This document shows, piece after piece, positions 5,225 to 58,499 of a stretch of 64,000 bases of DNA. Each line of letters begins with the position of its first letter. The first letter of the stretch is position 1. Below the pieces are notes generated by a model that saw only the letters and a list, made by a program, of their open reading frames with translations, did not search any database and was not told the origin of the DNA. Both the position numbers and the translations under genes were made by a program. Source of the DNA: Escherichia coli (GTDB taxonomy: Bacteria; Pseudomonadota; Gammaproteobacteria; Enterobacterales; Enterobacteriaceae); the NCBI RefSeq assembly GCF_030013595.1, contig NZ_CP122768.1, one strand, 5' to 3'.

Positions 5225-6373
5225 TTACTTAGCGGTTTTACGGTACTGCTCAATTAACTCGATAAAGTGGTCGAACAACGGCGCTGCGTCGTGTGGCCCA
5301 GGGCTGGCTTCCGGGTGACCCTGGAAGCTGAACGCCGGTTTATCGGTGCGATGAATGCCCTGTAACGTACCGTCGAACAGGGATTTATGCGTGACACGCA
5401 GGTTTGCAGGTAATGTTGCTTCATCCACCGCAAAACCGTGGTTCTGGGCGGTGATCATCACCACGTTTTTCTCCACATCTTTAACCGGATGGTTGCCGCC
5501 GTGGTGACCAAATTTCATTTTGACAGTCTTCGCACCGCTCGCCAGCGCCAGCAGCTGATGACCGAGACAGATGCCGAAGACCGGAATATCGGTTTCGAGG
5601 AATTTCTGGATGGCGGTAATGGCGTAATCGCACGGGGCCGGGTCGCCAGGACCGTTGGAGAGGAAGATGCCGTCTGGATTCATTTTCAACACATCTTCCG
5701 CAGAAGTTTGCGCCGGAACGATGGTCAGACGGCAGCCTCTATCCACCAACATGCGCAGGATGTTGCGCTTGGCACCAAAATCATAAGCCACAACATGGAA
5801 CGGCAGCTCGTCTTCTTTCTTCGCTTCTGGCAGGCCGCCGGTCAGCGTCCAGCTCCCTTGTGTCCAGCTATACGTTTCTGCGGTGGTCACTTCTTTTGCC
5901 AGATCCATGCCGTTCAGACCTGGGAACGCGCGGGCTTTTTCTAATGCCAGCGCCGCATCCGGGTTATCGCCTGCGATAATGCAGCCATTCTGTGCGCCTT
6001 TCTCGCGCAGTAAACGCGTCAGCTTACGGGTATCGATATCAGCAATCGCCACGATGTTATGGCGCTTCAGATAAGAAGAGAGGTCTTCGGTATTACGGAA
6101 GTTGCTGGCAATCAGCGGCAGGTCGCGAATCACCAGACCTTGTGCATGTACCTGAGAAGATTCTTCATCGGCGTCATTAGTGCCGACATTGCCAATATGG
6201 GGATAAGTAAGAGTAACGATTTGACGAGAATAGGAAGGATCAGTGAGGATTTCTTGATAACCGGTCATTGAAGTATTGAAAACGACTTCCCCAACCGCCG
6301 AACCTGTTGCCCCTATGGCCCGACCGTGAAACTGGGTTCCGTCTTCCAGAACCAATAGCGCTGACTTAATCAA
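5225..6373 (-). CDS. carA: Carbamoyl-phosphate synthase small subunit (glutamine amidotransferase)
   Basis: Translation matches CarA from [11 protein letters not shown]; start placed at the TTG codon (minus strand, plus-strand CAA at 6371-6373), the known non-ATG start of carA; 382 aa. Confidence 0.9.
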
Positions 6374-6387
6374 AACACCCTCCAGAG

Positions 6388-6425
6388 AATATTCACTCAC
6401 TTTATTTGCATATTAATTCACAATG
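6388..6425 (-). promoter_or_regulatory. Tandem ARG boxes (ArgR operator) at carAB promoter P2
   Basis: Minus-strand reads TGTGAATTAATATGCAAATAAAGTGAGTGAATATTC immediately upstream of the carA start, matching the ARG-box consensus. Confidence 0.65.
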
Positions 6426-6741
6426 ATGACGTAAATCAATGCAAATCTGCTTACCGACGAATTTCTGGCAAACGGCGGCATTCTGGAGATATGGGCGCTA
6501 AAAGTCAACTTAATGGCGGGATTTTTTATATTATTTTGTGGCTCATGCATGTTTTACAGGCATTAAGCGACAAAAAGATCATATAACATGTTCTGGAAAA
6601 CGCTTGCGCAGCAAGAAGATTGCATGAAATAAAAATGAGCAGAAAAAAGTGGACCAGATGGTCAAAATTTACATTAAAACAACAAAAACAGAAGACAAAA
6701 CATGTAATTTTCAGCACTTGCATTAAATTTAAAAGCATAAC

Positions 6742-39210: not shown

Positions 39211-39987
39211 ATGCTGATTCTTATTTCACCTGCGAAAACGCTCGATTACCAAAGCCCGTTGCCCACCACGCGCTATACGCTGCCGGAGCTGTTAGACAAT
39301 TCCCAGCAGTTGATCCATGAAGCGCGGAAACTGACGCCTCCGCAGATTAGCACGCTGATGCGCATCAGCGACAAACTGGCGGGTATCAACGCCGCTCGCT
39401 TTCATGACTGGCAGCCAGATTTCACGCCGGAGAATGCCCGCCAGGCGATTCTGGCGTTTAAAGGTGATGTCTACACCGGCTTGCAGGCCGAAACCTTCAG
39501 CGAAGACGATTTCGATTTTGCCCAACAGCATTTGCGAATGCTTTCCGGCTTGTATGGCGTACTGCGCCCGCTCGATTTAATGCAGCCTTATCGTCTGGAA
39601 ATGGGGATCCGTCTTGAGAATGCCCGAGGGAAAGATCTGTATCAATTCTGGGGAGATATCATCACCAACAAGCTGAACGAGGCGCTCGCAGCACAAGGCG
39701 ATAATGTGGTGATTAATCTGGCGTCAGATGAGTATTTTAAATCGGTGAAGCCGAAGAAATTGAATGCCGAGATTATCAAGCCGGTGTTCCTCGATGAGAA
39801 GAACGGCAAATTTAAGATCATCAGCTTCTACGCTAAGAAAGCACGCGGTCTGATGAGTCGTTTCATTATTGAAAATCGGCTGACCAAACCAGAGCAACTG
39901 ACTGGTTTTAATAGCGAAGGTTACTTCTTTGATGAAGCTTCCTCCAGCAATGGTGAACTGGTGTTTAAACGCTACGAGCAGCGTTAA
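39211..39987 (+). CDS. yaaA: Peroxide stress resistance protein YaaA (UPF0246)
   Basis: 258-aa [16 protein letters not shown]... Confidence 0.9.
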
Positions 39988-40026
39988 GTTTGTAGTCAAT
40001 GCCGGATGGCAATCCGGCATTGATAT

Positions 40027-40323
40027 TTAGCGATGATGTTTGTCAGGCCCCGGACGATGATCGCCACGATGATCATTGTGCTTGTTATGGCGCGGCGATG
40101 GCGGCGGTCCATATGGGTGCCAGCGATTGCCTCGCCATTCATAATGTTGTTTCCACCAGCCGTGGTCGCGCCAGTGACCGCCATCCCAGTAATAGCCACG
40201 ATTATCACGATCGCCTATCTGTAATTTTACTGACGGGACTAACGTAATTTCCGCAGCCTGCGCTGCCATGGGAGCGACCAGAACCAGGGAAAGTGCGAGT
40301 ACGATAGATTGCATCTTTTTCAC
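40027..40323 (-). CDS. yaaX: Small secreted His/Arg/Trp-rich protein YaaX (DUF2502)
   Basis: 98-aa ORF with signal peptide [23 protein letters not shown]. Confidence 0.8.
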
Positions 40324-40536
40324 AGGTTACTCCTTTTATCATTGCCCGTTATGGGTCGATATCCGGAGATTACGCGATGAGAACGGCGGTTGTTATTCTC
40401 CGCAATCCTAATCTCTAAGTTACCGCATTTATTGAGAATTTCTCCTTTTTCCCTGTCGTTTCTCTCCATATTTTCTTCACAAAAAAGCCGGGCTGCATAA
40501 AAGCAAACTCGGCCTGATTGAGATAATGAATAGATA

Positions 40537-41823
40537 TTACTGATGATTCATCATCAATTTACGCAACGCAGCAAAATCGGCGGGCAGATTATGCGAAAGC
40601 AAGGGTAAATCGGCACGTTCTGCCAGCTCTTTTGGCAGATCCAACGTTTCACCGAGAATCGCTTCCACGCTCTCTTTAAATTTCGCCGGATGCGCGGTGC
40701 CGAGGAACAAGCCATATTCGCCTGGATTCAACTGGTCACGCAGCGCACGATAAGCTACGGCAGCGTGCGGCTCCGAGGTGTAGCCCAGTTCTTTTAACTC
40801 ACGCATTGTCTGTTGCGTGGTTTCATCATCCACGGCTGCATAACCCAGCTCTTTCAGTTGCCAGATTTTGCGGCGGAACAACTCTTCCACACGCGGCCAG
40901 TTGTTCGGCTGACTCACGTCCATCGCGTTGGATAACGTCGCCTGAGTCGCTTTGGGGGACCACTGACCGTCGTGCAGGAAACGTGGCACGGTATCGTTCA
41001 CGTTGGTCGCAGCAATAAAACGTTTCACCGGCAGACCGAGTGACTTCGCCAGCAGACCCGCCGTCAAATCGCCGAAGTTACCGCTCGGCACCGAGACAAC
41101 CAGCTGGTTGCGCGCTTCCTGCGGCAACTGCGCCACGGCTTCAAAGTAGTAGCAAATCTGCGCCAGCAAACGGCTGATGTTAATGGAGTTAGCAGAGTTT
41201 AACCCCAGCGCCACTTTCAGTTCTTCATCATCAAACGCCTGCTTCACCAGCGCCTGACAGGCATCGAAATCGCCGTCGATGGCAACAGTTTCAATATTGC
41301 CGCCCAATGTACAGAACAGTTTTTCTTGCAGTGGACTGATTTTGCCTCGTGGATAGAGGATAACCACTTTCACATTCGGCAAACCGTAGAAAGCATGAGC
41401 CACTGCCGCTCCGGTATCACCGGAGGTCGCGGTCAGAATGGTCACTGGCTTATCGCCCGCAATATGGGTCAGCATTTGTGCCATAAAGCGACCGCCGAAA
41501 TCTTTAAATGCCAGCGTTGGCCCGTGGAACAACTCCAGACAACCGACATCGCTTTCAACATTGGCGACCGGAGCCGGGAAGGCAAACGCCGCGCGTACGC
41601 GCTCTTCCAGGATTTCCTGCGGGATTTCATCACCAATAAACGCCGAGAGGATCTTCGCACTGCGGGTGACAAAATCCAGCTTCAGCATCTCATCAATTTC
41701 AGTCAGGCTGAATTCCGGCAGGTCGTGCGGGAAAAACAGCCCCTGATTTTTGCCCAACCCCTGGGTTACGGCTTGCGCAAAGCTGACCTGCTCATTGTGA
41801 TCTTTAAGATTGTAGAGTTTCAT
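40537..41823 (-). CDS. thrC: Threonine synthase
   Basis: 428-aa MKLYNLKDHNEQVSFAQAVTQGLGKNQGLFFP... Confidence 0.95.
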   Translation of the reverse strand: MKLYNLKDHNEQVSFAQAVTQGLGKNQGLFFPHDLPEFSLTEIDEMLKLDFVTRSAKILSAFIGDEIPQEILEERVRAAFAFPAPVANVESDVGCLELFHGPTLAFKDFGGRFMAQMLTHIAGDKPVTILTATSGDTGAAVAHAFYGLPNVKVVILYPRGKISPLQEKLFCTLGGNIETVAIDGDFDACQALVKQAFDDEELKVALGLNSANSINISRLLAQICYYFEAVAQLPQEARNQLVVSVPSGNFGDLTAGLLAKSLGLPVKRFIAATNVNDTVPRFLHDGQWSPKATQATLSNAMDVSQPNNWPRVEELFRRKIWQLKELGYAAVDDETTQQTMRELKELGYTSEPHAAVAYRALRDQLNPGEYGLFLGTAHPAKFKESVEAILGETLDLPKELAERADLPLLSHNLPADFAALRKLMMNHQ

Positions 41824-56534: not shown

Positions 56535-58202
56535 GTGGCTCAATTCGTTTATACCATGCATCGTGTCGGCAAAGTTGTTCCGCCGAAACGTCATATTTTG
56601 AAAAACATCTCTCTGAGTTTCTTCCCTGGGGCAAAAATTGGTGTCCTGGGTCTGAACGGCGCGGGTAAGTCCACCCTGCTGCGCATTATGGCGGGCATTG
56701 ATAAAGACATCGAAGGCGAAGCGCGTCCGCAACCGGATATCAAGATTGGTTATCTGCCGCAGGAACCGCAGCTGAACCCGGAACACACCGTGCGTGAGTC
56801 CATTGAAGAAGCGGTTTCTGAAGTGGTTAACGCCCTGAAACGCCTGGATGAAGTGTATGCGCTGTACGCCGATCCGGATGCCGATTTTGACAAGCTGGCC
56901 GCTGAACAAGGCCGTCTGGAAGAGATCATTCAGGCTCACGACGGTCACAACCTGAACGTTCAGCTGGAGCGTGCGGCGGATGCGCTGCGTCTGCCGGACT
57001 GGGACGCGAAAATCGCTAACCTCTCCGGTGGTGAGCGTCGTCGCGTGGCGTTGTGCCGCCTGCTGCTGGAAAAACCAGACATGCTGCTGCTCGACGAACC
57101 GACGAACCACCTGGATGCCGAATCCGTGGCGTGGCTGGAACGCTTCCTGCACGACTTCGAAGGCACTGTTGTGGCGATTACCCACGACCGTTACTTCCTC
57201 GATAACGTGGCGGGCTGGATCCTCGAACTGGACCGTGGTGAAGGTATTCCGTGGGAAGGTAACTACTCCTCCTGGCTGGAGCAGAAAGATCAACGTCTGG
57301 CGCAGGAAGCTTCACAAGAAGCTGCGCGTCGTAAGTCGATTGAGAAAGAGCTGGAGTGGGTACGTCAGGGGACTAAAGGCCGTCAGTCGAAAGGTAAAGC
57401 ACGTCTGGCGCGTTTTGAAGAGCTGAACAGCACCGAATATCAGAAACGTAACGAAACCAACGAACTGTTTATTCCACCGGGACCGCGTCTTGGCGATAAA
57501 GTGCTGGAAGTCAACAACCTGCGTAAATCCTATGGCGATCGTCTGCTGATTGATGACCTGAGCTTCTCGATCCCGAAAGGAGCGATCGTCGGGATCATCG
57601 GTCCGAACGGTGCGGGTAAATCGACGCTGTTCCGTATGATCTCTGGTCAGGAACAGCCGGACAGCGGCGCCATCACTTTGGGTGAAACGGTGAAACTGGC
57701 ATCGGTTGATCAGTTCCGTGACTCAATGGATAACAGCAAAACCGTTTGGGAAGAAGTTTCCGGCGGGCTGGATATCATGAAGATCGGCAACACCGAGATG
57801 CCAAGCCGTGCCTACGTTGGCCGCTTTAACTTTAAAGGGGTTGATCAGGGTAAACGCGTTGGCGAACTCTCCGGCGGTGAGCGCGGTCGTCTGCATCTGG
57901 CGAAGCTGCTGCAAGTTGGCGGCAACATGCTGCTGCTCGACGAACCGACCAACGACCTGGATATCGAAACCCTGCGTGCGCTGGAAAACGCCCTGCTGGA
58001 GTTCCCGGGCTGCGCGATGGTTATCTCGCACGACCGTTGGTTCCTCGACCGTATCGCCACGCACATCCTGGACTACCAGGATGAAGGTAAAGTTGAGTTC
58101 TTCGAAGGTAACTTTACCGAGTACGAAGAGTACAAGAAACGCACGCTGGGCGCAGACGCGCTGGAGCCGAAGCGTATCAAGTACAAGCGTATTGCGAAGT
58201 AA
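56535..58202 (+). CDS. ettA: Energy-dependent translational throttle protein EttA (ABC-F ATPase)
   Basis: 555 aa with two ABC cassettes (Walker A GLNGAGKST / GPNGAGKST; signature LSGGERRR / LSGGERGR). Confidence 0.95.
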   Translation: MAQFVYTMHRVGKVVPPKRHILKNISLSFFPGAKIGVLGLNGAGKSTLLRIMAGIDKDIEGEARPQPDIKIGYLPQEPQLNPEHTVRESIEEAVSEVVNALKRLDEVYALYADPDADFDKLAAEQGRLEEIIQAHDGHNLNVQLERAADALRLPDWDAKIANLSGGERRRVALCRLLLEKPDMLLLDEPTNHLDAESVAWLERFLHDFEGTVVAITHDRYFLDNVAGWILELDRGEGIPWEGNYSSWLEQKDQRLAQEASQEAARRKSIEKELEWVRQGTKGRQSKGKARLARFEELNSTEYQKRNETNELFIPPGPRLGDKVLEVNNLRKSYGDRLLIDDLSFSIPKGAIVGIIGPNGAGKSTLFRMISGQEQPDSGAITLGETVKLASVDQFRDSMDNSKTVWEEVSGGLDIMKIGNTEMPSRAYVGRFNFKGVDQGKRVGELSGGERGRLHLAKLLQVGGNMLLLDEPTNDLDIETLRALENALLEFPGCAMVISHDRWFLDRIATHILDYQDEGKVEFFEGNFTEYEEYKKRTLGADALEPKRIKYKRIAK

Positions 58203-58211
58203 TGCGTAAAA

Positions 58212-58362
58212 TGCCGGATGCGGCGTGAACGCCTTATCCGGCCTACAAACCAAGAAATTTCAATACGTTGTGAATCTCCAGGCCTGATAAGACGCGGTAA
58301 GCGTCGCATCAGGCATTGAGCACCGAATGCCGGATACGGCGTGAACGCCTTTTCCGGCCTAC
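58212..58362. repeat. BIME / REP cluster (three palindromic units) in ettA-nadR intergenic region
   Basis: GCCGGATGCGGCGTGAACGCCTTATCCGGCCTAC, an inverted central unit, and GCCGGATACGGCGTGAACGCCTTTTCCGGCCTAC. Confidence 0.65.
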
Positions 58363-58499
58363 AACAGCCTTAGCATCTGCAATTTCGTAGCGGGTCACCC
58401 GTGCAGGTTCTTTCTAATCTCAACAGCCTCTTCCAGAGAGTTTTTCAACTCATCAAAAAAACTCAATTTATACCTCGCCTTTGAACCGTTTCATCACGG

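Follow-up and report, generated by a model that had tools for sequence, protein, structure and literature searches.

The convergent genes yaaA and yaaX in the window (the whole 64,000-nucleotide stretch of DNA that was analysed) are separated by a spacer that is very probably the BIME-free allele of a polymorphic REP site, whose lone hairpin would serve the 3' ends of both genes and whose short form would go back to replication slippage. The difference in length from K-12 is a REP/BIME presence–absence polymorphism of a textbook, already known kind, an ordinary difference between strains. Such polymorphism in the intergenic regions of Escherichia coli has been reported by Bachellier et al. (1997, Genetics; as cited under reference 39 in PMC3333891) and by Ton-Hoang et al. 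(2012; PMC3333891). As in the polymorphic BIMEs known from that work (PMC3333891), the site lies at a gene 3' end and is filled in some strains, the number and form of the elements vary, and the filled allele receives REP-specific insertion sequences (IS); nothing essential is different at yaaA–yaaX. We found no description, for this locus, of the 10-bp repeat at the junction, of the 10-mer present in one to four copies, or of the linkage to particular yaaX tails.

The short spacer and its hairpin

The features of the region are collected in Table 1. The yaaA stop codon ends at 39987 and that of yaaX (TTA on the + strand) starts at 40027, so that the limits of the open reading frames and the output of a repeat finder bear out the initial annotation of two convergent genes exactly 39 bp apart with one hairpin between them. 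The junction reads ...cagcgTTAA gtttgtag TCAATGCCGGAT ggca ATCCGGCATTGA tat TTAgcg..., and the arms TCAATGCCGGAT and ATCCGGCATTGA (39996–40007 and 40012–40023), which are 100% complementary and 4 nt apart, form the sole inverted repeat that the repeat finder reported in the spacer. Its core is the 24-mer AATGCCGGAT-GGCA-ATCCGGCATT at 39998–40021. The structure had been called a perfect palindrome; the inverted repeat is perfect, but it is not palindromic to its centre, which is occupied by the non-palindromic 4-nt loop GGCA. Compared with shuffled sequences, the hairpin folds strongly as RNA of the + strand (−27.8 kcal/mol, z −7.1), as RNA of the − strand (−19.1 kcal/mol, z −5.3) and as DNA (z −5.7).

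Table 1. Features of the yaaA–yaaX region in the window.
Feature	Position	Strand	Basis or remark
yaaA (peroxide stress protein YaaA, 258 aa)	39211..39987	+	ORF; label from 100% match in CFSAN061763
yaaX (DUF2502 protein, 98 aa)	40027..40323	-	ORF; PF10697 on all homologues
Convergent intergenic spacer, 39 bp, very probably the BIME-free allele	39988..40026	.	Same spacer in IAI39 and SMS-3-5
Single stem-loop, 12-nt arms, loop GGCA	39996..40023	.	8 nt past yaaA stop, 3 nt before yaaX stop
One copy of the 10-mer AATGCCGGAT, y-type REP foot with AAT prefix	39998..40007	+	5' arm of the hairpin
Divergent haplotype block: hairpin and last ~100 nt of yaaX (codons of the C-terminal ~33 aa)	39998..40125		Linked to BIME absence

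Both arms of the hairpin correspond to the foot of a y-type REP, (T)GCCGGAT...ATCCGGC(A), with an AAT prefix. The 10-mer AATGCCGGAT occurs four times in the window, where 0.24 occurrences are expected, and the other two, at 58210 and 58326, begin true y REPs. A REP is defined as an imperfect palindrome of 30–40 nt with a mismatch or a bulge in its stem (PMC3333891); the hairpin of the window measures 24–28 nt, its arms are fully complementary and it is bulge-free. The conserved GTAG/CTAC of the REP foot is likewise missing from it: the flanks read gtagTCA...TGAtatt, the GTAG at 39992–39995 sits just beyond the TCA extension of the stem, off the position of the REP foot, and no CTAC follows ATCCGGC. 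A scan of the window with the y-REP consensus, allowing up to three mismatches, matched only at 58213 and 58329 and not at the hairpin. With its one short hairpin, the spacer also holds no BIME, which consists of two REPs in alternating orientation and a linker. A known RNA family as the identity of the hairpin was rejected: the search against Rfam 15 returned no family at the gathering score for the region, the one match, at chance level (21 bits against a gathering score of 60), lying inside yaaA.

The K-12 allele is a BIME-1

In K-12 (NC_000913.3) yaaX ends at 5530 and yaaA occupies 5683–6459, leaving a spacer of 152 bp. The K-12 length of about 150 bp given in the initial annotation was thus right, the difference of roughly 113 bp deduced from it is exact (152 versus 39 bp), and K-12 does not have the 39-bp spacer that had been named as contradicting the proposal. 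Comparison of the two intergenic regions resolves the 113 bp into a 112-bp block bracketed by a 10-bp direct repeat and a 1-bp indel in the region of the terminal hairpin, both on the background of a divergent yaaX tail; the length difference was placed by eye and then checked, a global MAFFT alignment of the window and K-12 having shifted the gap to the end and masked it. Written in the orientation of the window, the K-12 spacer starts with TAA gtttgcagtc followed by AATGCCGGAT gcggcgtgaacgccttatcctgcctac, continues with aaaagcatgcagattcaatatattgcagaattaac and then gtaggcctgataagacgcgccagcgtcgcatcaggc gctg, and closes with AATGCCGGAT tgtta CCCGGCATT tgtcat TTA. The block is accordingly flanked by two copies of the 10-bp AATGCCGGAT, of which the window holds one.

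The guess that the extra K-12 DNA might be a REP-type element proved correct. The 112-bp block consists, in a single copy, of a y REP, a 35-nt L linker and a z1 REP in inverted orientation. Measured against the reference sequences of the two types (PMC11208160), the y REP departs from TGCCGGATGCGGCGTAAACGCCTTATCCGGCCTAC by 2 mismatches and the z1 REP is, over 37/37 positions, the exact reverse complement of GCCTGATGCGACGCTGGCGCGTCTTATCAGGCCTACG. Since a BIME-1 is made of a y REP and a z1 REP inversely oriented around a long L linker (PMC3333891), the K-12 allele, which has both the two REPs and this arrangement, is a BIME-1. The window is without all of it except the 24–28-nt hairpin built from the y-REP foot. 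BIME-1 elements also go by the names RIP and RIB, and we take the K-12 element at yaaA–yaaX to be the one annotated as REP1. The 35-nt linker is conserved in the K-12, Sakai, IAI1, L018 and marmotae types of the locus and carries a near-consensus motif that is a putative IHF site, its ATTCAATATATTG agreeing with the IHF consensus WATCAANNNNTTR at 8 of the 9 positions that the consensus specifies; IHF sites are frequent in the L linkers of BIME-1 elements.

Folded as a single strand, whether of DNA or of RNA, the BIME forms a single long hairpin whose base contains the left 10-bp repeat; the right repeat comes directly after this hairpin. K-12 in addition retains a terminal hairpin beside the yaaX stop codon (AATGCCGG-attgttac-CCGGCATT), a diverged version of the hairpin in the window. 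Like K-12, about 72% of E. coli genomes have such a diverged version, with the BIME-1 placed between it and yaaA, and the short allele therefore amounts to the long allele minus the BIME block.

A REP cluster is also present elsewhere in the window, at 58203–58365, following the stop codon of a + strand open reading frame that ends at 58202. It comprises a y REP of exact consensus sequence, then a linker and a z1-like REP whose GTAG is degenerate, and, 116 bp after the first y REP, another one. Both y REPs have the AAT prefix, and the layout 'AATGCCGGAT ... AATGCCGGAT' is like that of the K-12 BIME between yaaA and yaaX.

Distribution of the alleles among E. coli genomes

The locus is present in 5,424 of 5,426 complete E. 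coli genomes. The 39-bp junction was found in 1,200 of them (22.1%; 72-nt junction query covered to at least 80%) and the right junction of the BIME form of K-12 in 3,932 (72.5%; 61-nt query), while 194 (3.6%) carry two to four tandem copies of AATGCCGGAT in spacers of 49–69 bp; about 100 of the 5,426 match none of the three junction queries. The tandem alleles are exemplified by A24 with two copies (49 bp; L022, 60–150), CFT073 with three (59 bp; L012, 1745–1815) and ABU 83972 with four (69 bp; L021, 60–170). They represent a small copy-number repeat made from one arm of the hairpin, and in the predicted fold of the CFT073 spacer the 3' arm is able to pair with any of the 10-mer copies. We take the short forms to belong to phylogroups B2 (SE15, CFT073, 536, ABU 83972) and F (IAI39, SMS-3-5), and the BIME forms to phylogroups A (K-12), B1 (IAI1), E (Sakai) and D (042).

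Short-read assemblies often break or collapse at REPs, and one contig of our set (L018) does end inside the y REP; an assembly collapse of the repeat in a single genome is nevertheless refuted as the source of the 39-bp spacer, and its chance is practically nil, the identical junction being found in about 1,200 complete genomes, those of SE15, IAI39 and SMS-3-5 among them.

The filled allele is itself a target. IS621, at the yaaA–yaaX BIME of 649 genomes (12.0%), and IS1397, in the loop of the y REP of up to 3 genomes, were both found within the 3,932 genomes with the K-12 junction. The former is an IS110-family bridge-RNA recombinase with the natural target ATCAGGCCTAC (PMC11208160), and the two are known REP-targeting elements (PMC1525189). 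At this locus the z1 REP is interrupted by IS621 at GTAG|GCCTGAT, where the sequence is the IS621 target in reverse complement (UTAK-14, L002, 1100–2500; also L023), and IS1397, of the IS3 family, is found, for example, in strain 042 (L017, 1130–2600). A first junction query for IS621 gave 822 genomes, too many because the sequence past the z1 REP starts with a y-REP foot that is common elsewhere; the count of 649 was obtained with a query reaching into yaaX. Genomes in which more than ~850 bp separate the two halves of the locus number 660, which roughly equals the two IS counts. With 649 of 5,426 genomes carrying IS621 in its z1 REP, this single BIME is very often occupied. In BIME-bearing alleles the z1 REP can thus be occupied by IS621 and the loop of the y REP by IS1397, whereas the allele of the window offers neither target; ATCAGGCCTAC is absent from both strands of the whole 64-kb window, which is not unusual, as shuffled sequences contain it ~0.01 times.

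The short spacer lies on a divergent yaaX-tail haplotype

As judged by alignment, the length difference from K-12 is located on a divergent haplotype and hence is no clean indel. Between 39998 and 40125 the window and K-12 are identical at 99/122 positions (81%), against 238/240 between 40126 and 40365, and yaaA, yaaJ and thrC are 98–99% identical (yaaA 99.1% at the nucleotide level). The haplotype boundary inside yaaX is sharp, identity to K-12 being 81% within the block and ~99% on either side. Over 39998–40125 the window is nearest to L004 (118/128) and K-12 is nearest to L018 (120/133), two lineages described below, and the C-terminal tail of YaaX in the window differs from the K-12-type tail (P0006), ...HHKKAPHDHHGGHGPGKHHR. 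The divergence of the segment and the difference between the YaaX tails indicate that two old 'yaaX tail plus spacer' alleles segregate in E. coli. The block has the appearance of an old mosaic produced by recombination, or else of a trans-species polymorphism affecting the His/Pro-rich tail of the DUF2502 protein.

In the comparison of 39211–41823 with CFSAN061763 (L003), a 701-nt query from the window is 100% identical to that strain, but yaaJ and thrC are only ~99.0–99.1% identical, so that the window belongs to a relative of CFSAN061763 and not to CFSAN061763 itself. The yaaA of the window is nearer to K-12-type strains (99.1–99.6%) than to CFT073 (97.6%); the spacer and yaaX are nonetheless of the CFT073 type. 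The YaaX protein WP_000738734.1 is, by annotation, common to CFSAN061763, CFT073 and ABU 83972.

The site in other lineages

A degenerate DNA pattern for the C-terminus of YaaA, applied to one genome per species, recovered L004 as its sole locus, other Escherichia differing in the last codons. The outgroups were taken from YaaX homologues and their contigs, a set that leaves out named E. albertii and E. fergusonii, and L004, L018 and L020 were placed by gene identity rather than by genome phylogeny. L004 is labelled E. coli, yet its thrC shares only 91.8% identity with that of the window, and the complete E. coli genome that matches it best does so at 95.6%; on these values it is probably a cryptic Escherichia clade. 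It carries the 39-bp form with the loop GGTA. L018, with a thrC identity of 88%, has the BIME and the right junction of K-12.

In E. marmotae (L005–L008) and the marmotae-like contig L020 the spacers measure 164 and 163 bp and hold y-L-z2; relative to K-12, the BIME of E. marmotae has an extra ~25 nt besides z2 in place of z1. E. marmotae (L005), L020 and K-12 share the exact start position of the y REP, 10 nt past the yaaA stop codon. The terminal hairpin of the marmotae type reads AAATGCCGGA-ggtca-TCCGGCATTT, and the hairpin of the window (AATGCCGGAT GGCA ATCCGGCATT) is nearer to it (AATGCCGGA GGTCA TCCGGCATT) than to the terminal hairpin of K-12.

Outside Escherichia, two Citrobacter-like loci (L009, 38 bp; L019, 36 bp) and one labelled Salmonella (L024, 41 bp) have a single hairpin each, unrelated in sequence. 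Three such lineages point to the hairpin itself as the conserved feature of the site, the REP-type sequence found there being, from these comparisons, Escherichia-specific. The locus labelled Salmonella enterica (CP191473.1; L024, 1795–1835) has a yaaX homologue and a 41-bp spacer in which an A-tract, a hairpin and a T-tract give the textbook shape of a bidirectional terminator; S. Typhimurium LT2 is, as we assume, without yaaX.

A possible role of the hairpin

REPs act as partial terminators and as stabilisers, their presence between two convergent genes is correlated with a higher expression of these genes, and their location varies among strains (bioRxiv 10.64898/2026.03.23.713779). The window resembles the hairpins and REPs of that study in having one palindromic structure for two convergent 3' ends, but differs from them in that a U-tract is missing on the yaaX side and weak on the yaaA side. 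The hairpin is most likely a 3'-end structure shared by both convergent mRNAs, acting as a weak terminator and an exonuclease block. On the yaaA transcript, with the tail UAUUUA, it would work as a weak intrinsic terminator at best, and on that of yaaX mainly as a barrier to 3' exonucleases, because no U-tract follows on that strand. The stem is GC-rich; the RNA that follows it is UAUUUAGC on the yaaA strand (4 U in 8) and CUACAAAC on the yaaX strand, and the corresponding DNA tails are TATTTAGC on the + strand (4 T in 8) and CTACAAAC on the − strand (1 T). A simple terminator scan, which requires a minimum of 5 T among the 8 nt that follow the stem, called the hairpin in neither direction. 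A canonical bidirectional terminator was considered and rejected, since the flanks of the hairpin do not support it: an A-tract upstream with a T-tract downstream is not found, and the upstream flank GTTTGTAG is not A-rich.

The hairpin might also be an ordinary terminator unrelated to REPs, its identity with the y-REP foot a coincidence and the direct repeat of K-12 a by-product. Its stem is GC-rich and closely framed by the two stop codons, hairpins of unrelated sequence occupy the same place in other genera, and the hairpin of the window has neither GTAG/CTAC nor a mismatch in the stem. We regard this as improbable: beside the missing U-tract on the yaaX side and the empty result of the terminator scan, the 10-mer is strongly over-represented in the window, its other two copies being the feet of true y REPs, and in K-12 the same 10-mer starts a y REP 112 bp upstream.

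As REPs are linked to the expression of convergent genes, yaaA and yaaX might be set to different levels by the two alleles, and by this analogy the short and long alleles may differ quantitatively in the expression of both.

Origin of the short form

On balance we lean towards a slippage deletion between direct repeats as the source of the short form. Replication slippage between the two 10-bp repeats at the base of the BIME quasi-palindrome would have deleted the block from an old haplotype with a yaaX tail like that of E. marmotae, and the allele would then have spread by descent and recombination. A BIME with the same left junction is found in marmotae-type and coli-type loci, and at the thrC identity of 88% seen in L018, which implies that occupancy of the site by the BIME predates E. 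coli and thereby favours deletion. Deletion is also favoured by the perfect 10-bp direct repeat that brackets the block at the base of a long quasi-palindrome, by the 10-mer being itself slippage-prone (one to four copies), and by the properties of the Y1 transposase, which is not expected to make 10-bp duplications and whose TnpA-REP cleavage motifs the block boundaries miss.

A direct repeat at the base of a long quasi-palindrome is a classical substrate of slippage deletion, and slippage between short direct repeats flanking a palindrome underlies, for example, the precise excision of Tn10 and Tn5. The yaaA–yaaX site resembles the latter in that a 10-bp repeat brackets a quasi-palindrome, that one copy is retained and that the tandem copy number changes; it differs in that the event here is a reconstruction, the alleles being old and their flanking sequences different. 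Because the difference between the alleles extends over a whole haplotype block (81% identity), the sequence of the window is not the product of a simple deletion, in one step, from that of K-12. Excision mediated by RAYT, considered as another origin, is unsupported: the block boundaries lie 5–14 nt from the published TnpA-REP cleavage sites TGCC|TGAT and CC|TAC (PMC3333891).

A less likely history, which we nevertheless take seriously, is that the 39-bp form is the ancestral empty site and that the BIME-1 was inserted later, in the line that led to phylogroups A, B1, D and E, with a separate or an earlier insertion in E. marmotae; RAYT/TnpA-REP, or recombination using the REP-like hairpin arm as a patch of homology, could have inserted it. 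The Citrobacter-like and Salmonella-labelled loci do have short spacers with a single hairpin, and L004, which among the non-coli lineages sampled is the closest, carries the short form, as do the reference strains of B2 and F, which we take to be early-branching groups; an ancestral empty site accounts for these observations as well as a deletion does. The BIMEs are, moreover, not identical, E. marmotae having y-L-z2 with ~25 additional nt where K-12 has y-L-z1. Independent insertions are, however, unlikely to have started the y REP at an identical nucleotide in the marmotae and K-12 types, and the hairpins outside Escherichia are non-homologous in sequence and say little about the Escherichia ancestor. 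The boundaries of the block are also off the reported cleavage sites (PMC3333891), which speaks against insertion as it does against excision. Nor is Y1/HUH transposition (IS200/IS605) known to produce target duplications of 10 bp.

The junction repeat of AATGCCGGAT, the 10-mer in one to four copies in B2 and the ancient yaaX-tail haplotypes across Escherichia species would also be compatible with a more far-reaching proposal, which we put forward as a speculative one, namely that the site is a rare natural filled/empty pair displaying the loss or gain of a BIME through microhomology at the REP foot.

Implications

The 113-bp difference from K-12 is accounted for by the absent BIME-1 and has otherwise little significance. 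In this strain the 3' ends of yaaA and yaaX are without the REP hairpins, the IHF-like site in the linker and the IS621 and IS1397 targets of the K-12 allele. Spacer length (39, 49, 59, 69 and 152 bp, and ~1,430 bp with IS621) offers a convenient, PCR-sized lineage marker. The local details, that is, the junction repeat, the copy number of the 10-mer, the linked yaaX tails and the heavy occupancy by IS621, are of modest value as a possible natural example of BIME loss. We know of no direct observation of REP/BIME turnover in E. coli; if the short allele were a recurrent product of slippage, or if the haplotypes were selected through the expression of yaaA and yaaX, the locus could become a simple assay of that turnover.
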